Shown: positions 24,373 to 54,050 of the stretch, one piece after another
Layout: each line of letters starts with the position of its first letter
Position numbering within the stretch: position 1 is the first letter of the stretch
Assembly: GCA_035461305.1 (NCBI GenBank)
Contig: DATHVN010000050.1
Location: forward strand, 801-64,800
Length of the DNA: 64,000 bases
Source: Euzebyales bacterium
GTDB lineage: Bacteria; Actinomycetota; Nitriliruptoria; Euzebyales; JAHELV01
Reading direction: 5' to 3'
Translations under genes and position numbers: made by a program
Notes under the pieces: model-generated
What the model was told of the DNA's origin: nothing
Databases searched by the model: none
Seen by the model: the letters and a program-made list of their open reading frames with translations, nothing else

Positions 24373-24386
24373 TGCAAACGTTTGTT
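24373..24386. promoter_or_regulatory. LacI-type operator A
   Basis: TGCAAACGTTTGTT, between the divergent M24 (start 24355) and lacI-family (start 24459) genes. Confidence 0.6.
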
Positions 24387-24458
24387 CCCCCGTTATAGCA
24401 GGCAACCGCGCCTCGCGAACCACCAGGTGGAGACGGCTACTTGGTACGATGCGTCGCA

Positions 24459-25481
24459 ATGCTGGGACGTCGGGTGACCTTGCGCGATGTCGCCGATCGG
24501 GCCGGGGTGCACCCGTCCACGGCGTCGCGTGCGATCAACGAGCACACGCGCTCGCTCGTCGACGACAAGACGGTCGAGCGTGTGCTGCAGGCGGCCAACG
24601 ACCTGGGGTACCAGCCCGATTCGCTCGCCCGCGCGCTCAAGACCAACCGGACGCACACGGTCGGCATGCTGCTGCCCGACCTGACCAACCCGCTGTTCCC
24701 GCCGATCGTGCGTGGCATCGAGGACGGACTTGGCGGCGCGCACTACACCGTCATCCTCGGCAACACCGACAACGATCCCGCCAAGGAGCGCACGGTCATC
24801 TCGGCGCTGCTCGGCCGTCGGATCGACGGGCTGATCCTGGCCACGACCGAGCGCGAGCCGTCACCGATCATCGCCAAGCTCATGGACGGCGGCCTGCCGA
24901 CGGTGCTCGTCAACCGCACGATCGACGACCCGAGGGTGCCGTCGGTGCTCGGCGACGACCGCGTCGGCATCGAGTTGGCCGTCGATCATCTGGTCGACCT
25001 CGGCCACACCCGCATCGCGCACGTCGCGGGACCGCAGCGGACCTCGACCGGCCTGCTGCGCCACGACAGCTTCGTCGCGTCGATGCAACGCGCCGGCCTG
25101 CCGGTCAACCGCGACCGCATCGTGTTCGCCGACTGGTTCCGCGAGGCGCCCGGCGCCACGGCGTGCCGGACCCTGCTGGACCGTTGCCCCGACACCACGG
25201 CGATCGTCGCCGCCAACGACCTGATCGCGATCGGCTGCTACGACGTGGCCAACGAGCGCGACCTGCAGATCGGGGTCGACATGTCGGTGGTCGGCTACAA
25301 CGACATGCTGTTCGCAGACAAACTGTGCCCGCCGCTGACGACCATCCGGATCCCGCATTACCAGCTCGGCCTGCGTGCGGCGCAGCTGATCCTGAACCTG
25401 ATCAACGACGCCCACGCTGAGCCCGAGCAGGTACGGCTGACGCCGACGCTCGTGCGGCGCGCGTCGACTGGTCCGGTGTGA
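24459..25481 (+). CDS. LacI-family transcriptional regulator (1)
   Basis: VTLRDVADRAGVHPSTASRAIN (HTH) followed by a periplasmic-binding-fold domain. Confidence 0.9.
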   Translation: MLGRRVTLRDVADRAGVHPSTASRAINEHTRSLVDDKTVERVLQAANDLGYQPDSLARALKTNRTHTVGMLLPDLTNPLFPPIVRGIEDGLGGAHYTVILGNTDNDPAKERTVISALLGRRIDGLILATTEREPSPIIAKLMDGGLPTVLVNRTIDDPRVPSVLGDDRVGIELAVDHLVDLGHTRIAHVAGPQRTSTGLLRHDSFVASMQRAGLPVNRDRIVFADWFREAPGATACRTLLDRCPDTTAIVAANDLIAIGCYDVANERDLQIGVDMSVVGYNDMLFADKLCPPLTTIRIPHYQLGLRAAQLILNLINDAHAEPEQVRLTPTLVRRASTGPV

Positions 25482-26705
25482 TCACGCGCGGGCGCGTGTC
25501 TCGGGGACGCTGACCGCACACCACACTGCCGCCGAGACCAGCAGGCCAGCGATGGCCATCATCGTCGGCGCGGGCCCGAGGCGCTCGAACAGCTGGGTGG
25601 CCACCAGCGGCCCGACGATCAGCCCGACGTCGCCGGTGAAGCGGAAGCGCCCAAGCTGCGGTCCCAGCTCGCCCTCGGCGGCGAGGTCGGCGAGGACGGT
25701 CGCGCCGACGGAGATGCTCCATGACGCCAGGGACATCACGACGATGCCGGCCAGCCACCACGGCACGCCAGGACCGATGACCAGCGCGACGCCGACGGCC
25801 TGCAGCAGCAGGCCGGGCAGCAGCGCCGCACGTCGCGAGACGCGGTCGGCCAGCGTGCCACCGACGAACCCGCCGACCAGGCGGCAGGCACCGCCAACCC
25901 CCAGAGCCACGCCGATCGTCGACACGCCGAGCTGCAACTGGTCCGCACCGATCAGCGGGATCAATGTCTGCGGCATCGCGCCGAGCGTGAAGAACATCGC
26001 GAACGACACCGCCAGCAGTGCCCGGTGCGCTCCCGGACCGGTGTGGATGCGCACCGCATCCGACGGCTCGGCGGTGTCGGGATCGGGTGGGATGCGCACC
26101 CGGGGTCGGCTCCGGTTGCGGCGCCGCAGTACGAGCAGCGCCAGGGCCAGGACCGCACAGGCGCCGGCCGCGACGACCTCGGCCACCCGCCACGACGACG
26201 CGGCTGCGATGCCGCCGGCGGCCAACGGCCCCAACGCCTGCCCCCCAAGCAGCGCGGTCGAGAACACTGCCAGCGCGGTCCCGCGCCGCCGCGTCGGCAC
26301 CGTGACGGAGAACGCGTGCATGCCCGTGGCGTTGGTCACCGCCGACGAGATGCCCAGCGTGAAGGCCGCGACGTAGGCCGCCACGGGCAGCCCCGCGGCT
26401 GCCAGCGCCAGACTACCCACGACCATCAGTGTTGCCGACGCCGACAACAGCGCCGCGGGGTGCACGCGCTCGAGCAGCCTCCCCGCCGGCAGGTCGGTCA
26501 GCAACCGCCCCGCGGCATACATGCTCGTGATGATCCCGAGTTGGGTCGCCGACATCGACAGGTCCCGACCGATCTCGGGGAGCAGGGGCACGCGGAAGAA
26601 TGCCGCCGTCGACAGCACCAGCACCGCTGCGCCGACGCCGGCCAGCAGCGGGTACCGCGATGCGGTGGGGGAACGGGACGGGTCGGTCGTGGTGGGCCGC
26701 GGCAT
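25482..26705 (-). CDS. MFS transporter
   Basis: About 12 predicted hydrophobic segments and a GRLLTDLPAGRLLER MFS loop motif. Confidence 0.85.
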   Translation of the reverse strand: MPRPTTTDPSRSPTASRYPLLAGVGAAVLVLSTAAFFRVPLLPEIGRDLSMSATQLGIITSMYAAGRLLTDLPAGRLLERVHPAALLSASATLMVVGSLALAAAGLPVAAYVAAFTLGISSAVTNATGMHAFSVTVPTRRRGTALAVFSTALLGGQALGPLAAGGIAAASSWRVAEVVAAGACAVLALALLVLRRRNRSRPRVRIPPDPDTAEPSDAVRIHTGPGAHRALLAVSFAMFFTLGAMPQTLIPLIGADQLQLGVSTIGVALGVGGACRLVGGFVGGTLADRVSRRAALLPGLLLQAVGVALVIGPGVPWWLAGIVVMSLASWSISVGATVLADLAAEGELGPQLGRFRFTGDVGLIVGPLVATQLFERLGPAPTMMAIAGLLVSAAVWCAVSVPETRARA

Positions 26706-26717
26706 CTCCCTCTACGC

Positions 26718-26731
26718 TACAAACGATTGCG
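26718..26731. promoter_or_regulatory. LacI-type operator B
   Basis: TACAAACGATTGCG, between the divergent MFS (26705) and amidohydrolase (26776) starts. Confidence 0.55.
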
Positions 26732-26775: not shown

Positions 26776-27780
26776 ATGACCTACGACGTGCACGCGCACT
26801 GCATCCCACCGCGGGTGATCGAGGCGATCCGCGCGGGTGAGGACGATCTCGGCGTGGAGATTGGCGACGACGGCGGGCGCGGACGCCTCTTCGTGGCGGG
26901 GACTCCGGGACGCATGCCGCTGCACCCCGGGTTGGCCGACCTCGACGCCCGCATCGCGGCCATGGACACCGCCGGCGTCACCGTGCAGCTGCTGTCGAGC
27001 TGGATCGACCTGACGGCCTACGCGTTGCCGCCGGACCAGGGCGAGCGACTCGCGCGCCTGTTCAACGCGGCGGTCGCCGAGATGGTGATGGTGACGCCCG
27101 ACCGGTTCCGCGGGCTGTGCACCGTGCCGCTGCAGGCTCCGGAGCGCGCTGCCGCCGTGTTGCGCCAGGCCGTGACGGAGCTAAGCATGGTCGGCGTCGA
27201 GATCGCCACGACCGTCGACGGACGGGAGCTCGACGACCCCGGCCTTGACCCCTTCTGGGCGGCCGCCGCCGAGCTGCGATGCCTCGTCCTGCTGCATCCG
27301 CTGGACTCGCTGGCGGGTCGCGGCGTGCGCCGCCACTTCCTGTCGAACATGGTCGGCAACCCGGCGGAGACCACCATCGCCGTCGGACACGTGGTCTACG
27401 GGGGTGTGCTGCAGCGCTACCCGGAGCTGCGCATTTGCGTCGTGCACGGCGGCGGCTTCGTGCCGTACCAGGCCGGTCGGATCGCGCGGGGGTACGTCGC
27501 GCGTCCGGACCTGACCGCGACCGTGCTGTCAGAGCCGCCTGAGGCGTCGCTGCGGCGCCTGTACTTCGACACCGTGCTCCACGACCCGCAGGCCGTGGCG
27601 GCCCTGGTGGCGTTCGCCGGCGTCGAGCACGTCGTCATGGGCAGCGACTACCCGTTCGAGATGGGCGATCCCGACCCGGTCGGCACGATCGCCAAGGTCC
27701 CGGGCCTGACCGAGGCCGAACGCACCCTGATCCTCCGCGGCAACGTCGAACGCCTGATCAACGACCTGACCATCGCGTGA
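26776..27780 (+). CDS. Amidohydrolase_2 (ACMSD-type metal-dependent decarboxylase/hydrolase) family protein
   Basis: MTYDVHAHCIP.., VVHGGG, GSDYPFE. Confidence 0.85.
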   Translation: MTYDVHAHCIPPRVIEAIRAGEDDLGVEIGDDGGRGRLFVAGTPGRMPLHPGLADLDARIAAMDTAGVTVQLLSSWIDLTAYALPPDQGERLARLFNAAVAEMVMVTPDRFRGLCTVPLQAPERAAAVLRQAVTELSMVGVEIATTVDGRELDDPGLDPFWAAAAELRCLVLLHPLDSLAGRGVRRHFLSNMVGNPAETTIAVGHVVYGGVLQRYPELRICVVHGGGFVPYQAGRIARGYVARPDLTATVLSEPPEASLRRLYFDTVLHDPQAVAALVAFAGVEHVVMGSDYPFEMGDPDPVGTIAKVPGLTEAERTLILRGNVERLINDLTIA

Positions 27781-30589: not shown

Positions 30590-31531
30590 TCAGCCGCCCT
30601 CGGGCGGGGTGAGCCCGTCGGACACATCGACGTCCTCGGACACCAGGTCCATGCCGGACAGCTCGGCCTGCAGCTCGAGCAGCGCGGCGAAGTCGACGTC
30701 GCCGCGCCCCGAGCCAATCAGCTGGACGACCATCTGGTGCACCAGCGCCGACACGGGCAGCGGCACGTCGAACTGGCGTCCCGCCTCGAGCCCGAGCTCG
30801 AAGTCCTTGCGCAGCAGGTCGCCGGTGAAGGTCGGGGTGAAGTCCAGGTTCACCAACGCCGGGGTCTTGTAGCGGCTGAACGTCGACCCCATGACGCTGT
30901 TGTTGAGGAACTCGAGGAAGTCGTGGCGGGGCACGCCGGCGCGCTCGGCCAGCACGGTGATCTCGGCCAGTGACTGCGTGACGATCCCCAGCAGCAGGTT
31001 GTGGCAGATCTTGACCAGGCGGGCGCGCTCGCCCTGCCCGACGTAGGTGACCTTCTGCCCGAACAGGTCCAGCAGCGCGGAGGACCGCTCGTAGGCCTCC
31101 CGCGGGCCCGACACCACGACGGTCAGCCGGCCGGACGAGACGACCTTCGGGTTCCCGCTCACCGGAGCCGCGAGCACCGAGGTGCCGACCTGCGCCGCTT
31201 TGCGGCGGACGCGCTCGGAGGCTTCGACGGAGACCGTCGACGAGTCGATCAGCACGGCAGGGCCGGAGCCGCCGGTGAGCAGCCCGTCGGCGCCCAGGGT
31301 GACCGCGTCGAACACATCCGACGACGACACCATGGTGACGACGAGGTCGCGGTCGGCCAGGTCGACGGCACGGTCGACCACCTTGACCCCCGCCGTGGCC
31401 AGCTCGTCGAGCTTGGACCGGGTCCGGTTCCACGCCGCGACGTCGCACCCCGCGTCGAGCAGCCGCCGGATCAACGCGACGCCCATCCTTCCGGCGCCGA
31501 TCCACCCGATCGTTGTGTCTTCCAGCGACAT
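30590..31531 (-). CDS. NAD(P)-dependent 3-hydroxyisobutyrate / tartronate-semialdehyde-reductase-family dehydrogenase
   Basis: IGWIGAGRMG, LAAPVSGN, KICHNLLLG. Confidence 0.85.
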   Translation of the reverse strand: MSLEDTTIGWIGAGRMGVALIRRLLDAGCDVAAWNRTRSKLDELATAGVKVVDRAVDLADRDLVVTMVSSSDVFDAVTLGADGLLTGGSGPAVLIDSSTVSVEASERVRRKAAQVGTSVLAAPVSGNPKVVSSGRLTVVVSGPREAYERSSALLDLFGQKVTYVGQGERARLVKICHNLLLGIVTQSLAEITVLAERAGVPRHDFLEFLNNSVMGSTFSRYKTPALVNLDFTPTFTGDLLRKDFELGLEAGRQFDVPLPVSALVHQMVVQLIGSGRGDVDFAALLELQAELSGMDLVSEDVDVSDGLTPPEGG

Positions 31532-31585: not shown

Positions 31586-31599
31586 TGCAAACGATTGTA
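31586..31599. promoter_or_regulatory. LacI-type operator C
   Basis: TGCAAACGATTGTA, between divergent starts 31531 and 31634. Confidence 0.6.
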
Positions 31600-31633: not shown

Positions 31634-32617
<984 letters not shown>

Positions 32618-32640: not shown

Positions 32641-33870
32641 GTGGACGGCCGGGCCTCCGCCGACGTCGAGCTGATCGCCTACCACGACCTCGAGGCCAGG
32701 CCGTCGTTCAAGCTCGCGCTGCAGGTGGTCGACGAGCGCTGGGTCCTGTATGCGACGCGGTTCTGGGAGCCGGGCATCTGGATCCTCGACGTCACCGAGC
32801 CGCGGCGACCGGAGATCATCGGTGTGATCGTCGCGACCGACGGCCCACTGGTCGCCACCTGGCAGGTCCAGGTGGCCCATGGCCTGCTGGTCGGCTCGCT
32901 TGAGCACCGCCCGCCGGCGTGGGGTGGCGACCCGCAGCACGCCACCGACGAGGGGATCGTGCTCTACGACGTGCGCGAACCACGGGCTCCGGTCGAGCTC
33001 GGTTGCCATCGGTACGGCGCGAGCGGAACGCACCGCAACTTCTACGACGGCGGCCGGTACGTCCACGCGACGGCCGCGGTGCCCGGCCACGACGGCAACA
33101 TCTACTCGGTCCTCGACGTCGGCGACCCGGCCGCGCCGCGCGAGGTCGGCCGGTGGTTCCTCGCGAGCAGTACGTCGCGGGCGGCGCGCGTCCGGACCGC
33201 CGCCTGTCGCTCCACGGACCGCCGTATGCGCTGGGGGACCGTTGCTACCTCCCGTACGGCGCCGCCGGGGTCGTGATCCTCGACATCGCCGATCCGACGA
33301 CGCCGCGCCTGATCTCCCGCCTCGACATCGGTGCGGCGTTCTCGAGCGTCATCGCGATGCACACGGTGATCCCGCTGCCGCGGCGCCTCGCGGTCGTCAA
33401 CACCGAGGCGATCGCCGAGCTGTCCGCCGAGCCGTACAACTTCGCCGGCATCGTGGACCTGTCCGACGAGTCCAGACCCCGGCTGATCTCGCTACTGCCC
33501 CCACCCGTGCCGCACGACGGCGCCCCCTACCCGAACTTCCAGACACGCGGCGGCCGCTTCGGTCCCCACAACCAGCACCATCACCAGGGCAACCCGCACC
33601 TGTTCCAGTCCGACACGGTCGTCCATCTGACCTGGTTCAACGCCGGCCTGCGGGTCTACGACGTCCGCGACCCGTGGGTGCCGCGCGAGATCGCCCACAT
33701 CCTGCCCGACGACGCGACGCAGCGGCGCGGGCTGCTGCCGGCGGACCGCGCTGGTGACGCAGTCCGAGGACGTGTTGGTCGACGCGTGCGGCTACGCGTA
33801 CGTGACCGACAAGAACCACGGGCTGCACATCGTGCGCTGCACCGCCGACCTTGCGGCGCCGACGTCCTGA
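32641..33870 (+). pseudogene. LVIVD-repeat-like beta-propeller protein, paralog of 46548-47720, with two frameshifts
   Basis: It runs through three frames: ORF 32167..33276 (..GIWILDVTEPRRPEII..REVGRWFL), ORF 32919..33905 (EQYVAGG..AGVVILDIADPTTPRLISRL..FNAGLRVYDVRDPWVPREIAH) and a manually read tail, LVTQSEDVLVDACGYAYVTDKNHGLHIVRC..*. The breaks lie near 33151-33170 and 33738-33759. Confidence 0.65.
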
Positions 33871-35469: not shown

Positions 35470-36248
35470 GTCACCCCCCTGGTGTCGGATGTGTCATGTG
35501 GCGTCGGCCTCCCGGCTCGGCGACGTGGCGCGTCGCGCGGCTCCGGTGGCCTCGTCGCCATCACCCTCGGTGGCCTGCAGCCCGCCGCCAAGGTAGAGCG
35601 ACCCCAGCCGGCCGCGAACACGCCGTTGGCGGCGTCACCCAGCGCCTCGCCGAACGTCGGCAGGCTGGGCCCGGTCGTGAAGAACGCGGCGTCGGGCTGG
35701 TAGCCGATCTCCTGCGTCGCACGCACCGGGCCGACCGAGTCCTCGAAGATCGTGCCGCCCACGACCATGTCGGCGTCGGAGTCGGCGATCGCGTTGGCCA
35801 GCGGCGCGAAGTCGACCTGCGGGCTCGACGAACAACATCTCGTAGCGCTCGGCGACCTCGGACGTGGGAATCACGAGCTTGGACGAGAACGGGCCGAAGA
35901 CCAGGTCGACGTTCTCGGTGGTGATCAGCCGTTCGTAGTCGCTGACCGCGGTGTTGACGTCCGAGGCGTCGTCGCGGACGATCAGCTGGACGGGCCGGCC
36001 GGGCAGTCCGCCACTGCTGTTGACGTCCTGGGCCAGATCCGTATCCGGTCTGTGCGGCCGAGCCCGGCTCGGCGAACTCACCGGTCAGCGGTAGCGAGAT
36101 CCCGATGACGATGGGGTCGCCCGACGCTCGCCGCCGCCATCGGCACTCTCGCTCCCACCGCTCTCACTCTCGCGAGGTCTCCGAGCCGACTCCGCCGCTC
36201 CGCCGCACGCGGCGAGCAGAGCAGCAGTGCGACCAGCAGGGCGCTCAT
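35466..36248 (-). pseudogene. Eroded Leu/Ile/Val-type ABC substrate-binding lipoprotein
   Basis: Signal and lipobox MSALLVALLLC..LAAC, PIVIGISLPLTGEF, DLAQDVNSSGGLPGRPVQLIVRDDASD..VDLVFGPFSS, and DFAPLANAIADSDADMVVGG.. lie in at least four different frames. There is also an internal deletion and no proper C-terminus. Confidence 0.7.
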
Positions 36249-36319: not shown

Positions 36320-36333
36320 TGCAATCGTTTGTA
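36320..36333. promoter_or_regulatory. LacI-type operator D
   Basis: TGCAATCGTTTGTA. Confidence 0.55.
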
Positions 36334-41817: not shown

Positions 41818-41824
41818 CTGACGC

Positions 41825-42838: not shown

Positions 42839-42840
42839 CG

Positions 42841-43770: not shown

Positions 43771-44969
43771 CGGTGCCGCGACAGGCGACGACGTCACCGC
43801 AGGCGCCGGCGTCGGACGTCATCGCGACCGTGACCGACCTGAGGGTGCACTTCCGAGCCAAGGCCGGCACGGTGCACGCGGTCGACGGGGTCAGCTTCGA
43901 CATCCGCGACGGCGAGACCCTCGGGCTGGTGGGCGAGACGGGCTGCGGCAAGAGTGTGACCGCCCGGTCGTTCCTGCGCCTCGTGCCGATGCCGCCCGGC
44001 ATCGCCGCCGGTGGCTCGATCACGTTCGGCCCCGAGGGCGTCGACCTGACCACCGCCGACGGTCGGACCATGCGCCGCATCCGCGGCGACCGCATCGCCA
44101 TGATCTTCCAGGACCCCGCCAAGGCCCTGAACCCGGCGCTGACGGTCCGCAACCAGATCGCCGAGGTCTTCAGCGAGCACAGGGTCGCCGACGTGCTGGC
44201 ACGCGCCGGCGTCGACCCAGCGGCCGCCGGCGGCTGGCTGCTGCGCCGACGGGCCGCCCGCCGGACGCGCGTGCCGGAGCGGATCGCGCTGGCGCTCCCA
44301 CCGCTGCGGTCCCGGTCCGCAGCCATCGAGCGCGCGCTCGACGACATGATCGCCGACGCGCTGGCCGAGACCCAGATCGCCAACCCACGCAAGGTCATGG
44401 ACCGCTATCCCCACGAGCTGTCGGGCGGCATGCGCCAGCGTGTGATGATCTCGCAGGCGCTGGCCTGCAACCCCGCGCTGCTGATCGCGGACGAGCCCAC
44501 GACGGCGCTGGACGTGACGGTGCAGGCCCGGATCATCGAGCTCGTCCGCGACCTGCAGCAGCGCCACGACACCGCGGTGCTCTACATCAGCCACGACCTG
44601 TCGCTGGTGCGCAGGGTCTGCGACCGGGTCGCGGTCATGTACGCGGGACGGATCGTCGAGATCGGGCCGACCGAGCAGGTGCTCGCGGAGCCGCTGCACC
44701 CCTACACGCGCGGCCTGCTGGCGGCCGTGCCGTCGGCGACCCACCGCCGTGGCGAGCTCGTCGCGATCGAGGGCACCGTGCCCGAGCTGATCGACCCGCC
44801 GCCGTCGTGCCGCTTCGCGGGCCGCTGCCCCCACGCCGCGCCGGCGTGCGAGCGCGTCGACCCGGTCCTCGCCCCCGTCGCCGACGGCCACGAGGTCGCG
44901 TGCTTCCTGCACCGCCCGCCCGACGATGCCGACGCCGACCTGCCCAGCGCGGACTGGGTCGTCCGGTGA
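43767..44969 (+). CDS. ABC transporter ATP-binding protein (DppD-like, with an internal insertion)
   Basis: [30 protein letters not shown] 43767 overlaps the upstream stop (GTGA). Confidence 0.9.
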
Positions 44970-44994
44970 CGGCGCGCGTGGATCGGAGGAGGGT

Positions 44995-46350
44995 GTGACC
45001 ACGGTGACCGAACGGTCCGGCGGCGCCGCCGTCGCGCCCCGGGGCGACATCGTCGTCGGCGTCCGTGACCTCCGCCGGTACTTCCCGATCCGCGAGGGAG
45101 CGCTGCAGCGCGTCGTCGGGCACGTCAAGGCCGTCGACGGCGTCAGTTTCGACCTGCGACGTGGGCAGACACTGGGGCTGGTGGGGGAGAGCGGCTGCGG
45201 CAAGACGACGCTCGGCCGCTGCGTCTCCGGGCTGTCCACGCCCACTGGCGGCGGCGTCTACTTCGACCTGACGGCCGACCAGGCGGCGCAGCTCGACCGG
45301 CTGCATGCCGTGCCGGAGGGCGGCGAACGGACCGACGCCCAGCGCGCCGAGCTCCAGGCGCTGGGGGCGGCGCACCGCGTCGACCTGCTCAAGCGACAGG
45401 CGTGGCGCCGGTTCCGGCGCAACACCCAGGTCGTGTTCCAGGATTCCTTCTCCTCGCTGAACCCGCGCCAGCTGGTCAAGGACATCGTCGGTCGGCCCCT
45501 GCGGGTGCACCGCGAGGCGTCGGGCTCGGCGCTGCGCGAGCGGGTCGTGGAGCTGCTCGACCAGGTCGGCCTGGGGCGCCAGCACCTCAACCGTTACCCC
45601 CACCAGTTCTCCGGCGGCCAGCGGCAGCGCATATCGATCGCCCGGGCCCTGGCGCTCGACCCCGAGCTGGTGGTCCTCGACGAGCCGACCAGCGCGCTCG
45701 ACGTGTCGGTGCAGGCGCAGATCCTGAACCTGCTGCACCACCTGCAGCAGGAGCGCGGCCTGACGTACCTGTTCATCACCCACGACCTGTCTGTCGTGCG
45801 CCACGTGGCCGACCGGATCGTGGTCATGTACCTGGGCCGGGTGGCCGAGGCGGGACCAACCGAGCAGCTCTTCGCGTCGCCCGCGCACCCGTACACCCGC
45901 GCCCTCCTGCAGGCGAGCCCGGATCTGTTCGACGACAGCACCGGCTTCCGCGGGCTGGAGGGCACGGTGCCGGACCCCGCGCGGCCGCCGGCGGGGTGCC
46001 GGTTCCACACCAGGTGCCCGCTGGTGACCGCCGACTGCGGGTGGGAGGTCGACGACGTCGTCCGCTGGCTCGAGGAGGAGCCGGGCATGTTCGACGAGCT
46101 CGCCGGGGTCGAGCGGAGGTCCACCTTCGACGCGGCGCTGAGGTTCGGGTCCGACGAAGCGGCACGGCGGCTGACGGCAGCACTGCGGTCCGACGCGGTG
46201 CCGAAGGCCATGCGCGACGCGCTCGAGCGGACCGACGCCACCGGCACCCGCGTCGACGTGGCGTTCCGCCCGGTCGGCGATGTCGAGCTGACCCCCCGTG
46301 GCACGGACCACCACGCCGCCTGCGTCCTTGACGACCTCGCCGCACCCTGA
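44995..46350 (+). CDS. ABC transporter ATP-binding protein (DppF-like, with an insertion and a C-terminal extension of about 100 aa)
   Basis: GESGCGKT, FSGGQRQR, VLDEPTSALD. RBS GGAGGA. Confidence 0.9.
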   Translation: MTTVTERSGGAAVAPRGDIVVGVRDLRRYFPIREGALQRVVGHVKAVDGVSFDLRRGQTLGLVGESGCGKTTLGRCVSGLSTPTGGGVYFDLTADQAAQLDRLHAVPEGGERTDAQRAELQALGAAHRVDLLKRQAWRRFRRNTQVVFQDSFSSLNPRQLVKDIVGRPLRVHREASGSALRERVVELLDQVGLGRQHLNRYPHQFSGGQRQRISIARALALDPELVVLDEPTSALDVSVQAQILNLLHHLQQERGLTYLFITHDLSVVRHVADRIVVMYLGRVAEAGPTEQLFASPAHPYTRALLQASPDLFDDSTGFRGLEGTVPDPARPPAGCRFHTRCPLVTADCGWEVDDVVRWLEEEPGMFDELAGVERRSTFDAALRFGSDEAARRLTAALRSDAVPKAMRDALERTDATGTRVDVAFRPVGDVELTPRGTDHHAACVLDDLAAP

Positions 46351-46373: not shown

Positions 46374-46493
46374 ACGTGACCGCCCACCAATCTGGGGACG
46401 TCGTGCCGCGTATGCGTTGGGGGACGTCCCCACGTGACCGGCTCGCCGTGGTTTGGGGACGTGGTGCCGCGTATGCGTTGGGGGGCGTCCCCA
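46374..46493 (+). repeat. Two tandem ~58-62-nt repeat units, each containing a GGGGACG...CGTCCCC hairpin
   Basis: Unit 1 is 46374-46431 and unit 2 is 46432-46493. The hairpins are TGGGGACGTC..GACGTCCCCA (46393-46432, 10-bp stem) and TGGGGACG..CGTCCCCA (46454-46493). Confidence 0.8.
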
Positions 46494-46534
46494 ACGGAGT
46501 GGCTCTGGGGTCGCGGGAGGCGGTCGACATCTGA

Positions 46535-46548
46535 TACAACCGTTTGCA
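46535..46548. promoter_or_regulatory. LacI-type operator G
   Basis: TACAACCGTTTGCA. Its last base is the A of ATG 46548. Confidence 0.5.
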
Positions 46549-47720
46549 TGCATGGTGGAGAGTCGCACGGGTTCCGTCAGCTCGCGCGCCACGATCTGGA
46601 CGGGCACGGCGACGGCATGCAGGTCATGCGGGCCGGCGACGCGTTGTACGTCGGGCACTTCGGGCCGTCGAGCATGGGCACCAGCGTGCTGGATGCCTCC
46701 GATCCGAAGGATCTGCGGCTGGTCCGCCAGTGGCGGGCACCCGAGGGCGCGCACACCCACAAGGTGCAGGTGGCCGACGGGCTCCTGCTGGTCAACGAGG
46801 AGGCGTTCCGTGGTGGGCGGCCGGCGCGCGCAGGCATGACGATCTACGACCTCACCGACCCGTTTGCACCGGCCGAGATCGGGTTCTGGGACTCGACGGG
46901 TAGGGGCGTGCACCGCATCGTGTACGAGGGCGGCGACCTGGCCCACGTCTCGGCGACCCCTGACGGCTTCAGCGAGCGCATCTGGGTCGTGGTCGACGTC
47001 TCGGACCCCACCGCGCCCGTGGAGCGTGCGCGCTGGTGGTGGCCGGGCATGGGCCCGGGCGAAGGCCGTGACTGGCCCGACGACGAGAGCCGCTCGGTGC
47101 ACCACGCACTGATCGACGGTGACCGGGCCTACGTGGGCCTGTGGGACTCCGGGATGGCGGTGCTCGACATCACCGACCTCGACGACATCCGCATCGTCTC
47201 GCGGCTGTCGTGGGACGTCGGCGGCAACACGCATACCGCGATGCCGCTGCCGGGTCGGGACCTCGTGGTGGTCACCGACGAGGCGACCAGCGACGGCTGT
47301 GACGACGACCCGCGGATGGTCCGCGTGGTCGACGTGGCCGACGAGACCGCACCGGTGGCGCGTGCCGTCTGTCCGGTGCCCGAGGGCGACTTCTGCGAAC
47401 GCGGGCTGCGCTTCGGCGCGCACTGCACCCACGAGAACCGGCCGGGCAGCTATCGCAGCTCGGAGGTCGTGGTCGTCACCTACTTCAACGCGGGGCTGCG
47501 TGTCTACGACCTGGCCGAGCCTGACGCGCCGCGCGAGATCGGGCACTGGATCCCGGACTGCCCGGCGGGGCAGCAGGCCGTGCAGATCAACGATGTGTGG
47601 GTGGGCGAGGACCTGCTGACCTACGTCACCGACCGCGTCCACGGCGGGGTGTACGTGCTGGAGCCGACCGACGACCTGGCGGCGTCCCTCGACGGGGCAC
47701 GGCTACGGGAGGGCACCTGA
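46548..47720 (+). CDS. LVIVD-repeat-like beta-propeller protein (intact paralog)
   Basis: GMAVLDITDLDDIRIVSRL, RVVDVADETAPV, FNAGLRVYDLAEPDAPREIGH, YVTDRVHGGVYVLE. It is collinear with 32641-33870. Confidence 0.7.
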   Translation: MHGGESHGFRQLARHDLDGHGDGMQVMRAGDALYVGHFGPSSMGTSVLDASDPKDLRLVRQWRAPEGAHTHKVQVADGLLLVNEEAFRGGRPARAGMTIYDLTDPFAPAEIGFWDSTGRGVHRIVYEGGDLAHVSATPDGFSERIWVVVDVSDPTAPVERARWWWPGMGPGEGRDWPDDESRSVHHALIDGDRAYVGLWDSGMAVLDITDLDDIRIVSRLSWDVGGNTHTAMPLPGRDLVVVTDEATSDGCDDDPRMVRVVDVADETAPVARAVCPVPEGDFCERGLRFGAHCTHENRPGSYRSSEVVVVTYFNAGLRVYDLAEPDAPREIGHWIPDCPAGQQAVQINDVWVGEDLLTYVTDRVHGGVYVLEPTDDLAASLDGARLREGT

Positions 47721-48856
47721 TGGCCACGCTCGGCTTCGCGCCTTCGGAGGACCCGTTCGTCGTCGAGCACGGCGGCTTCTACCGTCGCTGGCTGTCGATG
47801 ATCGACGACCTCGACGAGCTGCAGGCGACCGTCGCTCGGCTCGACGGGACCACCGAGGACCGCTGGGTGCCGGTGTGGCGTGAGGTCGGACAGCGCCACG
47901 AGGCCGAGGGCGACCGCCTGACCGACGAGGGGCGGTCCGACGACGCCCGCCGCGCCTACCTGCAGGCCAAGACCTACTACGCAATCGGGCGCTTCCCGGG
48001 CGAGATCACCCCGGTCAAGCGCGCCGTCAGCGACGACTGCGCCCGCGCCTACTGCAAGGCCAGCGGCTTCCTCGACCCGCCGCTCGAGGTCGTCGACGTC
48101 AGGCACCAGGGGCGGCCGATCACCTGCCACCTCCGCGTGCCCCACCACGCGTCGCCCGAGCACCCGGTCGCAGCCCTGCTGATCATGTGCGGCGCCGACG
48201 TGTTCAAGGAGGACCGGGGCTGGGCCTCGGAGTACGCGCTGGACCACGGCATGGCGTCGCTGGTCATGGACGGGCCGGGCACCGGCCAGAACCCGTTCCC
48301 GTGGGCACCCGAGTCGGTGTCGGCGTGGATCGCGGCGCTCGACCACCTGGCGGCGCGTCCTGAGGTAGACGCGTCCCGCATCGGCGCGTTCGGCATCAGC
48401 CGCGGTGGCTACTCGGTGCTGCAGCTCGCAGGGACGGTGCCGGACAGGGTGCGGGCCGTCGTCGCGAGCGCCGGCCACCCGTTCGGGTACCGCATGGACG
48501 ACGACGAGCTCGAGCGCTTCGTGGAGGTCCGCAACCAGCGGTCGGCGTGGCGGTTCGGCGAACCCGACGGGCCACCGTCGTTCGAAGCGACGTCGGTCCA
48601 GCAGGAGCGCGAGGACTTCAGCCGGTGGGCGCTGTCGGAGCTCGGTCTGGTCGACCGCATCACGCAGCCGGTGCTGATGATCAACGGTAAGCAGGACCAC
48701 CTGGCGCCCATCGGCAACATCTACTTCATGCTCGAGAGCGGTCCACCCACGGGACGCCAGGCCCGCGTCTACTCCGACGCGGGGCACTGCGCGTTCAAGC
48801 ACTTCGCCGAGTGGGCGCCGGCGTCGTTCGCGTGGCTGGCCGGTCACCTGGCCTGA
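47720..48856 (+). CDS. Alpha/beta hydrolase (FrsA/DUF1100-like esterase family)
   Basis: GISRGGY nucleophile elbow and DHLAP..GHCAF. ATG 47720 overlaps the upstream stop (TGATG). Confidence 0.7.
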   Translation: MATLGFAPSEDPFVVEHGGFYRRWLSMIDDLDELQATVARLDGTTEDRWVPVWREVGQRHEAEGDRLTDEGRSDDARRAYLQAKTYYAIGRFPGEITPVKRAVSDDCARAYCKASGFLDPPLEVVDVRHQGRPITCHLRVPHHASPEHPVAALLIMCGADVFKEDRGWASEYALDHGMASLVMDGPGTGQNPFPWAPESVSAWIAALDHLAARPEVDASRIGAFGISRGGYSVLQLAGTVPDRVRAVVASAGHPFGYRMDDDELERFVEVRNQRSAWRFGEPDGPPSFEATSVQQEREDFSRWALSELGLVDRITQPVLMINGKQDHLAPIGNIYFMLESGPPTGRQARVYSDAGHCAFKHFAEWAPASFAWLAGHLA

Positions 48857-50079: not shown

Positions 50080-50883
50080 ATGGGCGAGGTGAGCGGTGAG
50101 GACGTCGCGCGGTACCGGCGCGACGGGGCGATCTGCGTGCGTGGCGTGTTCGACGGCGACCAGATCACGGTCGTGCGTCGGATCGTCGATGCCGTGCTGG
50201 CCGACCCCGGCCCGCATGGCCAGACCGCGAGCCGGCCGGGCGAGCCGGCGTTCTTCGAGGACTTCTGCAACTGGCAGCGACACCCCGACCTGCGCGATGT
50301 GATCGATCGCGCGGGGCTGCCGGCGCTGTGCGGCCGGCTGATGGGGTCCGACGAGGTGCGCCTGTACCACGACCACGTGCTGGTCAAGGAGCCGGGCGCG
50401 CGCCAGGCGACGCCGTGGCACCAGGACCAGCCGTTCTACAACGTCGCCGGTCGGCAGAACATCAGCGCGTGGATCCCCGTCGACCCGGTGACCCGGACCA
50501 CGACGTTGGAGTTCGTCGCCGGCTCGCACGACGGCACCTGGTACCTGCCGACCACGTTCCTGGACCGGCAGGCCCAGTGGTTCCCGGAGGGCAGCCTGGC
50601 GCCCGTGCCCGACGTCGACCCCGCTACCGACCGGGTGCTGGGCTGGGCTCTGGAGCCGGGCGACGTGGTGCTGTTCCACATGCTCACCCTGCACGCCGCC
50701 GCGGGCAATGACATGCGCCACCCTCGCCGCGCGCTCTCGCTGCGGTTCCTGGGTGACGACGCGACGCACGCGCCGCGCCCATGGACCACGTCGCCGCCCT
50801 TTCACGGCCTCGACGAGGAGCTGCGGGCGGGGGCGCCGATGGATCACCCGCTGTTCCCGTTGCTGTGGACGGGGCGCCGGTAG
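50080..50883 (+). CDS. Phytanoyl-CoA dioxygenase (PhyH) family Fe(II)/2-oxoglutarate oxygenase
   Basis: ATPWHQDQPF, LTLHAAAGN, RRALSLRF. Confidence 0.85.
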   Translation: MGEVSGEDVARYRRDGAICVRGVFDGDQITVVRRIVDAVLADPGPHGQTASRPGEPAFFEDFCNWQRHPDLRDVIDRAGLPALCGRLMGSDEVRLYHDHVLVKEPGARQATPWHQDQPFYNVAGRQNISAWIPVDPVTRTTTLEFVAGSHDGTWYLPTTFLDRQAQWFPEGSLAPVPDVDPATDRVLGWALEPGDVVLFHMLTLHAAAGNDMRHPRRALSLRFLGDDATHAPRPWTTSPPFHGLDEELRAGAPMDHPLFPLLWTGRR

Positions 50884-51521
50884 TCCACCGCGTAGGCCGG
50901 CGCGTCGACGCCGGCGGGCGTGTGCTCGTCGGCGACGGGCGGCCCGATCGTCGTCGCGACCGGCAGCACGCCCGCCCACGAGCCGGCGTTGAGGTCGATC
51001 TCGTCGTCGACGGGTGGTCCGGTCCGCAGCTTCACCGATGCCTCCGACAGGTCGACCGCGACGATCGCCGTGGCCGCGGCCTCCTTGCGGTTGGGGTGGC
51101 GGACGTCGACCCACCGCCCCGGCACCAGGTGGTCGACGATCACCTCGAACGCGTGCCGGCGCTCGTCAGCACCGGTCACCGGGCGGGCCGTACCGAGCAC
51201 GACGGCCGAGCGATAGTTCATCGAGTGGTGCATCACCGAGCGTGCGAGCACCAGGCCGTCGAGCAGGGTGACCGTGACGCACACCGGCGCGCCGGTGGCG
51301 AGGTGGCGCATCATGCGGCTGCCGGTCGCGCCGTGGAGGTACAGCACGTCGCCGTCGCGACCATAGGCGGTCGGGATGACCACGGGGCTGCCGGCGTCGA
51401 CGAAACCGACATGGCAGACCAACCCCTCGTCGAGCACCTCGTACAGCGTCGCCGGGTCGTGTGCGGCACGCTGCGGGCTGCGGCGCACCCGAGTCCGCTG
51501 GGTCTGAGACAGCCCGACCAT
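50844..51521 (-). CDS. Pyridoxamine 5'-phosphate oxidase-family (FMN-binding split-barrel) protein
   Basis: LVCHVGFVDAGSPVVIPTAYGRDGDVLYLHGATGSRM.. Its 3' end overlaps the PhyH 3' end by 40 nt. Confidence 0.8.
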   Translation of the reverse strand: MVGLSQTQRTRVRRSPQRAAHDPATLYEVLDEGLVCHVGFVDAGSPVVIPTAYGRDGDVLYLHGATGSRMMRHLATGAPVCVTVTLLDGLVLARSVMHHSMNYRSAVVLGTARPVTGADERRHAFEVIVDHLVPGRWVDVRHPNRKEAAATAIVAVDLSEASVKLRTGPPVDDEIDLNAGSWAGVLPVATTIGPPVADEHTPAGVDAPAYAVDYRRPVHSNGNSG

Positions 51522-51550
51522 CGTGATCCCATCTGTTATAGTACAGATGA

Positions 51551-52870
51551 ATGACTGTACGTGAACAGTATAGGATCACCGGTCACACACGCCAGGAGAT
51601 CGTGGCTACCGTCGAGACCGGTGTGGAGTCGGGAGCGCTCGCGGCCGGCCTGGTGCTGCCCTCGGTGCGGACCCTCGCCGGCGATCTGGGGGTCAGCCCG
51701 GCGACGGTCGCCGCGGCGTACCGCGATCTGCGTGGTCGTGGCATCGTGACCAGCCGGCCCCGCAGCGGCGTGCAGGTTGCCCACCGCCCACCGCTGGAGG
51801 CCCCCTTGGTGCCGTCGGTGCCCGACGGCGTGGTCGATCTCGCGACGGGCAATCCCGATCCGATGCTGCTGCCGCCGCTGCCCGCGATCGCGCCACCCGA
51901 CCGACCGCGGCTGTACGGCGAGCCACCGGACCTGCCGGCGCTGCTCGATGCCGTCGGCGACGACCTCGAGGCCGACGGGGTGCGGACCGGCCACCTCGTG
52001 GTCACGAGCGGGGCGCTCGACGGCATCGACCGCCTGCTCGATGTGCACGTGCGCCGCGGCGACCGGGTCGCGGTCGAGGATCCGTGCTGGACGGGCACGC
52101 GCGACCTGCTGCGGCTGCGGGGGCTGGAGGCCGTCCCCGTCGCGGTCGACGACCGCGGCATGACGCCCGAGGCGCTGGAGGCGGCGCTGCGCGACGGTGT
52201 CGCGGCCATGTTGCTCACACCTCGCGCGCACAACCCGGCCGGTGCTGCACTGGACCCCGAGCGGGCAACGGCGTTGCGCGACCTGCTCGTCGACGCACCG
52301 GAGGTGGTGGTCATCGAGGACGACCACTCCGCCGTCGTCAGCGGTGCGGCTTACCACACGCTGTCGTCAGGCCGGCCGCGCTGGGCGGTGATGCGGTCGA
52401 TGGCCAAGGCGCTGGGCCCCGACCTTCGCGTCGCTGTGATGGCGGGGGATCGCCAAACCGTCGCGCGGGTCGCGGGCCGCCTGCGACTCGGCCCGGGGTG
52501 GGTCAGCACCATCCTCCAGCGGCTCGCCGCGACGATGCTCACCGACCCGGACGTGGTGGCCCTGCTTGCCGACGCGGCGCGGACCTACACGCGGCGTCGC
52601 GCCGCGCTGCTCGACGCCCTGCGCGACGTCGGGGTGGACGCCATGGGTCGGTCCGGGTTCAACGTCTGGGTGCCGGTGCCGCAGGAGGCACCACTGGTGG
52701 CCGGGATGGAACGCGCCGGCTGGGCGGTGCGCGCGGGCGAGCCGTTCCGGCTGGACGCCGGGCCGGGCCTGCGGATCACGAGCGCATCGCTGGATCCGCG
52801 TGACGCGGCACGGGTCGCCGGCGACCTGGCGGCACTTCTGCATGGCCCCGAGCGCACGCGCCTGGGATGA
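51551..52870 (+). CDS. MocR/PdxR-type regulator (GntR wHTH fused to an aminotransferase-like domain)
   Basis: LPSVRTLAGDLGVSPATVAAAYRDLRGRGIV plus a fold-type-I domain with SMAKALGPDLR (Lys). Confidence 0.85.
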   Translation: MTVREQYRITGHTRQEIVATVETGVESGALAAGLVLPSVRTLAGDLGVSPATVAAAYRDLRGRGIVTSRPRSGVQVAHRPPLEAPLVPSVPDGVVDLATGNPDPMLLPPLPAIAPPDRPRLYGEPPDLPALLDAVGDDLEADGVRTGHLVVTSGALDGIDRLLDVHVRRGDRVAVEDPCWTGTRDLLRLRGLEAVPVAVDDRGMTPEALEAALRDGVAAMLLTPRAHNPAGAALDPERATALRDLLVDAPEVVVIEDDHSAVVSGAAYHTLSSGRPRWAVMRSMAKALGPDLRVAVMAGDRQTVARVAGRLRLGPGWVSTILQRLAATMLTDPDVVALLADAARTYTRRRAALLDALRDVGVDAMGRSGFNVWVPVPQEAPLVAGMERAGWAVRAGEPFRLDAGPGLRITSASLDPRDAARVAGDLAALLHGPERTRLG

Positions 52871-52990
52871 CGACCACCGACGTCGCCCTGTCGCGGCCGA
52901 TAGCCGAGACGTTAGCCTACAAAGGTTGGGCACCCGGGTGACCGGTGAGCCCACCAGACGCAAGGCGGAGCCATCAAGAGGACACCGACG

Positions 52991-54001
52991 TTGCAGGAGG
53001 TCGCCGAGGCCGCCCAGGTGCACGTCTCGACGGTGTCTCGCGCGTTGGATCCGGCGAAGGCGTCGCTCGTCAGCGAGGCGACGCGCACACGCGTGGTGCA
53101 GGTCGCCGAGGAGCTCGGCTACCGCCCGCACCTCATCGCGAGCCAGCTGCGCCGCGGTCAGACCCAGACGGTCGGGGTGGTGGTGCCCGACCTCGGCAAC
53201 CCGCTGTACGCGCCGTTCGTGCGCGGTGTCGCGCACGCGCTCGACGAGCACGGCTACCTCCCCCTCGTCGCCGACACCCAGGATGACCACGACCGATTCC
53301 GACGGACGCTGCGCCACCTGTGGAGCCGCCGCGTCGACGCGGTCATCACGACGGCGGCCCGCATCTCCGACCGCGAGGCCGTGTGCGAGCTCGCCGACCA
53401 GGGCCTGCCGATCGTGCTCGCGGTCCGCACGCTGCCGGGCAGCGGCCTGCCGACCGTCGACCACGATGACACCGAAGGCGGGCGATTGGCGGCGCAGCAC
53501 CTGATCGAGCTCGGCCACCGGCGCGTGCTGCAGCTGAAGGGCCCACCGGACGTCACGCCGTTCCTGCACCGTGGGCACGGGTTCTCGACCGCGGTGGCGG
53601 CGGCCCGGTGCGAGGAGGTCGAGCCACCGGTCACGGCGACCCACCCGACGGTCGGCGAGGGTCGGCGGCTGATGCGGGCCGTGCTGGCCCTCCCCGGACC
53701 GCTGCCCACCGGCATGTTCGCCCAGAACGACCTGCTCGCGCTCGGCGCGCTGGAGGTGCTGCGCGACCGCGGCCTGTGGTGTCCCGACGACGTGTCGATG
53801 GTCGGCTACAACGACAACTTCTACGCGGCGCACGCGCGGCCGGCGATGACCGCGATCCGGCTTCCCGGCTATGACATCGGTCAGCTCGCCGGGGCGATGG
53901 CCATGGAGCACATCCGTGCGCCCAGCGGCGCGGAGACGTCGGTGTCGACTGCGCCCGTCCTGCTGGTCCGGGAGTCCGCGGGACCGCCGCCCGAACGTTG
54001 A
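52991..54001 (+). CDS. LacI-family transcriptional regulator (2)
   Basis: LQEVAEAAQVHVSTVSRALD. The TTG start is the only candidate after the in-frame stop at 52946, so it is uncertain. Confidence 0.8.
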   Translation: MQEVAEAAQVHVSTVSRALDPAKASLVSEATRTRVVQVAEELGYRPHLIASQLRRGQTQTVGVVVPDLGNPLYAPFVRGVAHALDEHGYLPLVADTQDDHDRFRRTLRHLWSRRVDAVITTAARISDREAVCELADQGLPIVLAVRTLPGSGLPTVDHDDTEGGRLAAQHLIELGHRRVLQLKGPPDVTPFLHRGHGFSTAVAAARCEEVEPPVTATHPTVGEGRRLMRAVLALPGPLPTGMFAQNDLLALGALEVLRDRGLWCPDDVSMVGYNDNFYAAHARPAMTAIRLPGYDIGQLAGAMAMEHIRAPSGAETSVSTAPVLLVRESAGPPPER

Positions 54002-54036
54002 CGCGGACGGCCCGCTGGCCTAGGCTGCGGACAGGG

Positions 54037-54050
54037 AGCAATCGATTGCA
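54037..54050. promoter_or_regulatory. LacI-type operator H
   Basis: AGCAATCGATTGCA, whose inner 12 bp form a perfect palindrome. It ends 11 nt before ATG 54062. Confidence 0.6.

Follow-up and report, generated by a model that had tools for sequence, protein, structure and literature searches.

What holds together a run of some 30 kb of catabolic genes that fits no pathway known by name? The question is raised by a stretch of 64,000 nucleotides (nt) from a Euzebyales bacterium (assembly GCA_035461305.1, contig DATHVN010000050.1, positions 801 to 64,800; here called the window), in which eight palindromes precede amidohydrolase, peptidase-fold, oxidoreductase and transporter genes and lie in the same region as two genes for regulators of the LacI/GalR family, lacI#1 and lacI#2. 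A first-pass annotation, made from the letters alone, had taken the palindromes for the operators of one LacI-type regulon. We consider it likely, with a probability of roughly 80%, that they are the operators of dimeric LacI/GalR-family repressors encoded in this very region, that is, of LacI#1, LacI#2 or both, as judged from the make-up of the sites, their placement and their recurrence in other genomes.

The coordinates and sequences given for the eight sites (O1 to O8; sites and genes are named as in Table 1) are correct. Their invariant part is a 10-nt core, CAANCGNTTG, that is matched eight times in the window against 0.12 matches expected from dinucleotide shuffles (standard deviation 0.36); eight were reached in no shuffle, and the earlier estimate of less than one chance match in 64 kb is borne out. 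The full 14-letter degenerate pattern proposed at the same time fits four of the sites, but O1, O2, O5 and O8 deviate from it at the outermost positions. Genes were called by third-position GC and checked with Pfam and with gene calls on independent contigs of the same sequence. With pseudogene remnants counted as genes, non-coding DNA (69.7% GC; the window has 69-74% GC throughout) makes up 8.1% of positions 20000-63600, and 0.027 core matches are expected there. All eight matches fall within it, for which random placement gives a chance of about 0.081^8, or 2e-9. As claimed, the sites are thus intergenic and promoter-proximal, six of them in five divergent intergenic regions, with O7 overlapping and O8 narrowly preceding a start codon. 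A matrix built from the sites scores the operators at 17-26 bits and the next-best position of the window at 8.5 bits; a 20-nt matrix gives no more than 6.0 bits anywhere else in the 64 kb. The scores are therefore bimodal, with no comparable match in coding DNA, and the comparable density inside coding regions that the first-pass annotation had named as counter-evidence was seen neither in the window nor in the related loci examined. All eight sites are confined to the 30-kb stretch that holds both LacI genes, and the other 34 kb have none. Extra weaker sites above chance were not found in the window with two matrices or with up to three mismatches (17 matches to TGCAANCGNTTGCA against 14.6 expected), and a near-site at 20785 (8.5 bits) and one at 52918 upstream of lacI#2 (7.3 bits) are unconvincing as operators.

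The palindrome shared across genomes is 14 bp long, TGCAAWCGWTTGCA. In the pooled set of 37 sites the motif reads T-G/a-C-A-A-W/c-C|G..., with C-1/G+1 in 72 of 74 half-sites and no conservation past +-7 nt. The sites are therefore not parts of a longer repeat. Even 14-bp palindromes with a central CG in intergenic DNA are what one looks for in LacI operators; a central CG is present in 1173 of the 1251 even-palindrome motifs of the LacI family (PMC4052901).

The two genes at 24459 and 52991 indeed encode LacI-type proteins. The helix-turn-helix domain PF00356 is matched with 50.4 bits by LacI#1 and 53.0 bits by LacI#2 (cut-off 27), Peripla_BP_1 and Peripla_BP_3 are above their cut-offs in both, and the alignment to RbsR, CcpA and PurR extends over the full length. 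Escherichia coli RbsR, CcpA and PurR are also the best relatives of LacI#1 in the PDB, at low identity (best match 191 bits). An assignment of LacI#1 as a PurR orthologue was rejected: there are no pur genes among the targets, and PurR is only the fourth-best PDB match (153 bits). The two proteins had been called paralogs. They do belong to one family, but they are not close paralogues, since they are 34% identical and fall into two separate clades, with identities of 63-89% within clade 1 (LacI#1), 50-86% within clade 2 (LacI#2) and 34-42% between the clades. Their recognition helices are nevertheless near-identical (HPSTASRA and HVSTVSRA), which fits a motif common to both clades. A two-residue insertion after the recognition helix is present in both clades and absent from RbsR and CcpA. 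Both clades also keep the leucine of the hinge helix (ARxLKTN in clade 1, ASxLRRG in clade 2, aligned with ARSLKLN of RbsR), whose role we take from the PurR and LacI structures to be insertion at the central CpG.

The operator of lacI#1 is conserved along with the gene. In seven loci with orthologues (L001, L002, L037-L040 and, weaker, L041; related loci are numbered in this way throughout), whose proteins are 63-93% identical, the palindrome lies 60-90 nt before the start in every case and forms a conserved block of the alignment. Autoregulation by the neighbouring factor usually shows itself in a site kept in this position, and 72% of LacI-family regulators are autoregulated (PMC4052901). 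A second conserved block (CTTGGTAsCATG-like) is found 10-20 nt upstream of the lacI#1 start, at about 24425-24458 of the window, in six orthologous loci.

Conservation of the operator set in related genomes had been suggested as a check, and the motif does lie upstream of orthologous targets in more than ten related loci. The same palindrome precedes orthologous genes in Nitriliruptoria, Acidimicrobiia, a metagenome-assembled genome (MAG) labelled Nanopelagicales and a Streptomyces plasmid. The related loci, 213 kb in all, contain 37 sites that score 14 bits or more, intergenic wherever genes were called, and 69 kb of unrelated high-GC loci gave no match of 17 bits or more. The nearest relatives of LacI#1 among species-representative genomes are encoded by a Nitriliruptorales MAG (75% identity) and an Acidimicrobiia MAG (66%), and metagenome contigs carry orthologues at 61-93% identity. 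Relatives of LacI#2 were traced to five contexts, including Egicoccus and Egibacter, where they stand amid motif-bearing target genes. In L117 the order is PhyH-LacI-AGCAATCGATTGCA-M24b-E1alpha-E1beta-aldehyde dehydrogenase, the last gene being full-length, and a second site precedes an intact BP_6 transporter. In the two Egicoccus loci, L118 and L119, sites are found before an Amidohydro_1-bicupin-SDR-LacI-LVIVD unit, before a HIBDH-like gene, before a Dpp-type ABC operon and, as a further site, between an E2 and an MFS gene. In Egibacter rhizosphaerae (CP036402.1) a single cluster contains two LacI genes, at about 3.433-3.437 Mb, and the corresponding units have sites in front of them. Taken by target, the motif precedes M24b units in the window, L117, L002, L120, L125 and L128, HIBDH-like genes in the window, L118, L119 and L120, BP_6 binding-protein genes in the window, L117 and L122, and the Dpp-type ABC operon in the window and L118.

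The individual operators can be followed from genome to genome in the same way. O2 is identical in L037, and its positional homologue in L001 has decayed to TACAGACCCTTGCA. O3 has its counterpart in TGCAAACGTTTGTA before the orthologous HIBDH-like genes of L118 and L119, O6 in TGCAATCGATTGTC before the orthologous SBP_bac_5 operon of L118, and the CAACCGTTTG variant of O7 recurs in L118, L119, L120 and L121. O8 is found unchanged and in the same place in L117. O4 corresponds to motifs upstream of intact BP_6 genes in L117 (position 8357) and L122 (18179 and 18194). Together with O5 it resembles a double operator in L002 (8109 and 8246), which there stands before a CMD-like gene of full length, with M24b and E1alpha next in order.

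Since most of these loci had been found via their LacI genes, loci were also fetched via the target M24b as an independent test. One of them, L125, is from a MAG labelled Candidatus Nanopelagicales (73% GC) and contains a cluster of genes for CMD-like, Fer2-MoCoBD, M24b, fused E1, E2, CrtI-like, HIBDH-like and FrsA-like hydrolase proteins, a second M24 protein and an aldehyde dehydrogenase; three perfect-core sites precede its Fer2-MoCoBD, M24b and CrtI-like genes. Plasmid pSSP121038 of Streptomyces sp. YIM 121038 encodes a clade-1 LacI, C9F11_RS46095 (50-54% identical), and has two sites, at about 747,062-747,143, in the divergent region before an oxidoreductase-M24b-SSADH unit, with E1 and E2 genes slightly further downstream. 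Plasmids of Phaeobacter and Paenarthrobacter that carry M24b and E1/E2 genes and no LacI gene have no site above 13 bits, and on a Rhodococcus plasmid with M24b and no LacI gene the best site (15.4 bits) is some 8.5 kb away from M24b in a stretch rich in integrases and transposases. The motif is thus present in LacI-bearing loci and lacking from these LacI-less M24b loci, which argues that it travels with the LacI clades and not with the targets as such. A hint that central carbon metabolism can be within reach of the regulon comes from L121, where two copies of the motif, 23 nt apart (680-716), stand between the genes for PEPCK and for a lactate permease at a distance of 9 kb from the LacI gene.

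How would such a switch work? We infer that the LacI proteins would bind these sites, and as repressors rather than activators. In the absence of effector, a repressor dimer would sit on each 14-bp CG-centred palindrome with its two recognition helices in successive major grooves and its hinge helices on the central CpG. Binding would block initiation at about 12 transcription units, roughly 25-30 genes, because the sites overlap the -10 element or the transcription start or lie about 10-70 nt from start codons. A small molecule, presumably the substrate of the pathway or an early intermediate, would release the repressor, and LacI#1 would also repress itself. With its even CG-centred palindromes, promoter placement and autoregulation this is the canonical switch of the LacI family, unusual only in degree.

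Promoter-like elements around the sites are compatible with this mode of action. A strict sigma-70 scan of the window returned a single promoter-like site, whose -10 hexamer TACAAT is a half-site of O3. A relaxed scan brought the plausible geometries to four, with a TTGACG-17-TAGGCT pair 10 nt upstream of O8, a -10-like hexamer TAGGCT 13 nt upstream of O5 and a TTGATC-17-TATCTT pair 7 nt upstream of O6. By these pattern matches O3 would lie over the -10 element, and the stretch from about +1 to +20 would take in O8, O5 and O6, as would be expected for repression at initiation. Gaps between operator edge and start codon are 0-72 nt; for seven units they are 0-17 nt, and for the partner gene on the far side of each divergent region 34-72 nt. 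Between the last ABC ATPase gene and O7 there are two 52-nt direct repeats (46393-46505, spacing 61 nt), each with a GGGGACGTCCCC-type palindrome; these may be terminators or repetitive extragenic palindromic (REP)-like elements.

Some observations do not fit easily and have to be set against repressors encoded next to their targets. In the LacI family more than 75% of the sites are 30-140 bp upstream of the regulated start codon (PMC4052901); the seven units with gaps of 0-17 nt are closer than that, which makes the promoter geometry uncertain. lacI#2 has no strong upstream site of its own (best nearby 7.3 bits), and neither has its orthologue in L117. Two operators, O4 and O5, stand before dead genes, so that selection need not still act on every site. 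In the window no operator precedes the Amidohydro_1-bicupin-SDR module, whereas its relatives have both operator and LacI gene, and in L126 there is no site before M24b. Finally, L125 has no LacI gene within 10 kb of its sites and its local regulator is of the GntR/FCD type, which means that the cognate factor need not be adjacent.

The best surviving alternative is that the sites make up two local regulons, separate but with motifs that look the same: LacI#1 would control the units at O1-O6 and LacI#2 those at O7-O8, possibly in response to different effectors. Identity between the two proteins is only 34%, with wide differences in their effector domains; clade 1 is found alone with motif-bearing targets in L001, L002, L037-L040 and L128, and clade 2 alone in L117-L121; Egibacter, too, keeps two LacI genes in one cluster; and the site beside lacI#2 shares a CAATCGATTG centre with its twin in L117. 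This centre, however, is also found before the clade-1 gene of L040 and that of L128, and the clade-2 loci L118 and L119 have CAAACGTTTG. When 37 sites of 14 loci were compared, LacI#1-type and LacI#2-type sites could not be told apart by their flanks, by the +-2 base or by the outer positions. The nearly identical recognition helices lead one to expect cross-binding, and the clade-1 locus L002 carries the M24b unit that in the window is beside LacI#2. On the whole we regard two separate regulons as rather unlikely. The earlier notion of a LacI-type regulon as such is supported by placement, footprinting, the loci fetched via M24b and the LacI-less controls; it may be a single regulon or two that overlap.

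Less probable still, and in our view improbable, is a third, unlinked global regulator of the LacI family, similar to CcpA, PurR or PckR, with the local LacI proteins as bystanders or as binders of other sequences. Such a factor would account for the three excellent sites of L125 and for the pair between PEPCK and lactate permease in L121, and the motif resembles what we take to be the generic LacI-family consensus, including cre and PurR boxes. It would hardly account for eight sites confined to the 30 kb of the window that hold both LacI genes, for a site immediately upstream of lacI#1 that is kept in seven loci, or for the absence of the motif from LacI-less target clusters in other phyla and genera. 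That the palindromes are not LacI sites at all but products of chance, remnants of repeats or mobile elements, or sites of another type of factor such as GntR/FCD can practically be dismissed: two sites do flank pseudogene remnants, 61-nt repeats adjoin O7 and the L125 cluster holds a GntR/FCD regulator, but there are eight core matches against 0.12 expected, all in non-coding DNA, they are kept across genomes despite diverged flanks, Rfam found no RNA family anywhere in the window, and FadR/FCD-type sites have a GT..AC arrangement whereas a CG-centred even palindrome is the hallmark of LacI.

As repressors of the LacI/GalR family, LacI#1 and LacI#2 share with the local repressors surveyed before the helix-turn-helix and effector domains, the hinge leucine, the CG-centred even palindrome, the promoter sites and, as predicted for LacI#1, autoregulation (PMC4052901). 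The regulon, of about 12 units and 25-30 genes, would rank among the largest 7% of the family, and it departs from the family's norm in that its targets are mostly amidohydrolase, peptidase-fold and oxidoreductase genes instead of recognisable sugar-pathway genes, in that two divergent members have one motif in one locus, and in that many sites are 0-17 nt from start codons where 30-140 nt is usual. One motif over many operons, and sites by PEPCK and lactate permease as in L121, recall the multi-operon regulons of PurR, FruR, PckR, GapR and GluR (PMC4052901). Those regulators, however, are usually encoded away from their targets and serve known central pathways, whereas here regulators and sites form one catabolic island. 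Fig. 8 of the same survey sets the PurR motif beside that of RbsR. A two-residue insertion sets both clades apart from RbsR and CcpA, as mentioned above. The core CAAACGTTTG is presumably close to a PurR/RbsR-type box.

The first-pass annotation could match the gene combination to no pathway, and this still holds: among 20 window proteins analysed with NCBIfam none is above an equivalog cut-off, the only model passed being NF006056, a "hypothetical protein" amidohydrolase subfamily (the Amidohydro_1 protein is of the TRZ/ATZ-type subfamily), and PDB searches with eight proteins gave distant relatives only. The description of the locus as a mosaic, in contrast, has to be given up. The same palindrome precedes orthologues in several actinobacterial classes, and the genes are therefore a recurrent set: two M24 hydrolases, an E1/E2 2-oxoacid dehydrogenase, a CrtI-like flavoenzyme, an Ayg1/FrsA-like hydrolase, several NAD(P) oxidoreductases besides a HIBDH-like enzyme, LVIVD propeller proteins, and uptake systems that include two ABC systems. 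Full-text searches of the literature returned nothing on this gene set, and of what they gave only a general survey of the LacI family was of use.

The centre of the set appears to be M24b. It has more than 8000 database relatives at E<1e-60, is 75-93% identical across actinobacterial orders and 55-64% identical to proteins on plasmids of the Roseobacter group, Streptomyces and Paenarthrobacter. In nine of ten contexts examined it is near, usually directly beside, E1 or E1/E2 genes, the Rhodococcus plasmid being the exception, and in Actinomycetota it is usually accompanied by the CrtI-like flavoenzyme, the Ayg1/FrsA-like hydrolase and the HIBDH-like dehydrogenase. With the non-peptidase M24 enzymes DddP, DoeA and creatinase it shares the Creatinase_N + M24 architecture, and DddP and DoeA are its best matches in the PDB (90 and 52 bits) and in NCBIfam; unlike M24b, these enzymes are not encoded beside E1/E2 genes. 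An assignment as dimethylsulfoniopropionate (DMSP) lyase DddP or ectoine hydrolase DoeA was rejected, the scores being 117.3 against a cut-off of 600 and 71.7 against 613. Four of the five metal ligands of the pita-bread fold align and the second aspartate aligns with a cysteine, where we assume the ligand numbering and residue roles of prolidase. M24b proteins of 55-61% identity are encoded together with E1/E2(/E3) on pP92_e of Phaeobacter inhibens (L127) and on a plasmid of Paenarthrobacter ureafaciens SD-1 (L129), and haloarchaeal plasmids carry relatives at 35-38%.

The other enzymes are equally remote from characterised ones. The Amidohydro_2 protein matches human ACMSD over its full length (191 bits); it matched no NCBIfam model, and Pfam revealed no 3-HAO-type gene in the window. 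The alpha/beta hydrolase is related to two C-C hydrolases of the PDB, Ayg1 (95 bits) and DHPON hydrolase (2JBW, 48 bits), and it probably cleaves C-C bonds. The flavoenzyme has 73 bits to CrtI, and E1alpha is of the PDH/acetoin type, below the curated cut-off. The creatininase-family protein, for which an exact database look-up returned no record, falls short of the curated creatininase score (83.5 bits against a cut-off of 235 for TIGR04448); it scores 98.5 against 172 for MftE and 40.9 against 245 for IolN. Routes for creatinine/creatine, DMSP, ectoine, purine/allantoin and 3-hydroxyanthranilate (ACMSD) were rejected because their defining enzymes are not present, and the same applies to Thermotoga-type inositol (IolN), acetoin and organosulfonate routes. 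In enzyme logic, the closest analogy is nicotine catabolism of Arthrobacter and Paenarthrobacter, which uses the large subunit of a Mo hydroxylase, a flavoenzyme of the amine-oxidase/CrtI superfamily, an alpha/beta hydrolase and an aldehyde dehydrogenase. The likeness is one of families and not of sequence; no nicotine-pathway equivalog was detected among the window proteins, and we know of no counterpart of the M24 hydrolases, the E1/E2 complex, the LVIVD proteins or the LacI regulation in the nicotine pathway. With low confidence, one could imagine a nitrogen-containing compound being broken down by the set through hydrolytic opening of C-N bonds, oxidation by flavin or Mo enzymes and C-C hydrolysis, the resulting 2-oxoacid being passed to E1/E2. 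It is tempting to speculate, and we do so only tentatively, that the regulon marks an undescribed, widely distributed pathway with an M24 core, probably for a nitrogen compound such as an amide, amidine or heterocycle, and that two diverged LacI clades came, by convergence or by retention, to use one operator, which would let two different intermediates gate one set of genes.

The interest of the locus is in this uncharacterised and widely conserved pathway; the switch itself is textbook. An operator conserved across several actinobacterial classes delimits about 20 families of enzymes and transporters, apparently co-regulated and none with an assigned function. M24b is unusually conserved and abundant in soil, saline and freshwater metagenomes, so that thousands of genes would gain an annotation once its substrate is named. 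Carriers that can be cultured are Egibacter rhizosphaerae, Egicoccus sp. AB-alg6-2, Streptomyces sp. YIM 121038 and, for the enzyme core, Phaeobacter, and the operator is a ready reporter for inducer screening. Operators persisting before decayed genes and two divergent LacI proteins with one motif are also useful cases for the evolution of regulons.

Table 1 Operators, regulators and putative target genes in the window
Feature	Position	Strand	Sequence or product	Context and evidence
O1	24373-24386		TGCAAACGTTTGTT	between M24a (-, 17 nt to ATG) and lacI#1 (+, 72 nt to ATG)
O2	26718-26731		TACAAACGATTGCG	between MFS gene (-, 12 nt) and ACMSD-like Amidohydro_2 gene (+, 44 nt)
O3	31586-31599		TGCAAACGATTGTA	between HIBDH-like gene (-, 54 nt) and AKR gene (+, 34 nt)
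O4	36320-36333		TGCAATCGTTTGTA	71 nt upstream of decayed BP_6 binding-protein gene (-)
O5	36411-36424		CGCAAACGATTGCC	weakest site, 17 bits; 10 nt upstream of truncated CMD-like gene
O6	39964-39977		TACAATCGTTTGTA	best-scoring site; between 2-hydroxyacid dehydrogenase operon (-, 12 or 48 nt by start codon) and Dpp-type ABC operon (+, 16 nt)
O7	46535-46548		TACAACCGTTTGCA	overlaps start of LVIVD#2; last base is the A of ATG 46548 (independent gene call)
O8	54037-54050		AGCAATCGATTGCA	ends 11 nt before M24b ATG at 54062; 10 nt downstream of TTGACG-17-TAGGCT promoter-like pair
lacI#1	24459-25481	+	340 aa, LacI/GalR family, clade 1	Pfam LacI and Peripla_BP_1/3; independent gene call agrees
lacI#2	52991-54001	+	336 aa, LacI/GalR family, clade 2	Pfam
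Mo large subunit	20925-23150	-	molybdenum-cofactor-binding large subunit, CoxL/XdhA-type	Pfam
M24a	23147-24355	-	M24 protein	Pfam; kept in L001; pair with Mo subunit kept beside lacI#1 in L038, L039
MFS gene	25482-26705	-	MFS transporter	Pfam; gene calls; synteny kept in L001, L037
Amidohydro_2 gene	26776-27780	+	ACMSD-like Amidohydro_2 protein	Pfam; gene calls; synteny kept in L001, L037
HIBDH-like gene	30590-31531	-	HIBDH-like protein	Pfam, NCBIfam
AKR gene	31634-32617	+	AKR	Pfam, NCBIfam
LVIVD#1	32647-33846	+	LVIVD protein, read in three frames in this assembly	57-70% identical to L118 LVIVD gene
CrtI-like gene	33886-35469	-	CrtI-like FAD oxidoreductase	Pfam
BP_6 remnants	35469-36248	-	remnants of BP_6 binding-protein gene	upstream of CrtI-like gene
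CMD-like gene	36435-36680	+	truncated, 81 codons (about 190 in relatives)	81-aa gene called likewise in independent contig
2-Hydroxyacid dehydrogenase operon	36677-39951	-	2-hydroxyacid dehydrogenase, creatininase-family protein, cupin, GFO/IDH/MocA oxidoreductase	Pfam
Dpp/Opp-type ABC operon	39994-46350	+	SBP_bac_5 binding protein, two permeases, two ATPases	Pfam; 55-74% identical to L118 operon
LVIVD#2	46548-47720	+	LVIVD protein	Pfam; independent gene call
Hydrolase gene	47720-48856	+	Ayg1/FrsA-like alpha/beta hydrolase	Pfam; gene call
M24b operon	54062-58561	+	M24b, E1alpha, E1beta, 5'-truncated aldehyde dehydrogenase	Pfam; 86-93% identical to L117
Amidohydro_1 module	59948-62943	+	Amidohydro_1, bicupin, SDR	64-69% identical to L118

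The units behind the operators are those named by the first-pass annotation, except that O4 and O5 flank gene remnants and no intact genes, and that the CrtI-like oxidoreductase gene had not been listed. This gene most likely belongs to the unit behind O4, which probably still heads a transcript reaching it. The CrtI-like gene directly follows lacI#1 orthologues in L002, L040, L043 and L045, and in L125 an operator is at its start codon.

The state of the locus was compared with two contigs (k141_1373187 and k141_656120) that represent the source population in the independent ENA assembly ERZ27272640. The operators do not differ between the assemblies. The truncation of the CMD-like gene, the BP_6 fragments and the truncation of the aldehyde dehydrogenase gene are identical in both and are therefore real; sequencing error as their cause is ruled out. 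In the stretch 57399-58561, the aldehyde dehydrogenase (57518-58561) lacks its first 143 codons or so and matches only residues 144-479 of the L117 protein, the gap being filled by a 40-codon open reading frame. In contrast, the frameshift in the 2-hydroxyacid dehydrogenase gene is a 1-nt deletion at about 39473 of this assembly only, the gene being intact (352 aa) in the ENA contig. A stretch of 519 bp (32849-33367) inside LVIVD#1 is absent from k141_1373187, and k141_656120 ends near 32800; the split of LVIVD#1 over three frames may be real or a sequencing error.

Compared with its relatives, the window is also rearranged. The CMD-like gene with the double operator is apart from M24b, which it precedes in L002; LacI#2 is placed before M24b; and the Amidohydro_1 module is without its operator and LacI gene. 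At the operator's place in relatives, the spacer between the EamA and Amidohydro_1 genes, 3.1 copies of a 61-nt unit follow one another in tandem (59607-59790), an array in which the ENA contig differs by indels. The module is followed here by an HTH_3-cupin regulator gene (62818-63585, -). The window also has an insertion relative to L117: two divergent genes, for a MocR/PdxR-type GntR-aminotransferase regulator and a Pyridox_ox_2 protein, separate PhyH from lacI#2 (50844-52870). This pair is probably a separate unit related to pyridoxal phosphate.

No gene for a 2Fe-2S or FAD subunit to go with the Mo large subunit was found anywhere in the window. The Mo subunit of L125 is of another type, two-subunit and IorB-like, and is only 26% identical to it. 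Just downstream of the M24a-Mo subunit unit is a gene of the mycothiol-S-transferase/DinB family (20048-20575), and the weak palindrome at 20785, TGCAGCCGGTTGCG, lies in the spacer by this gene.

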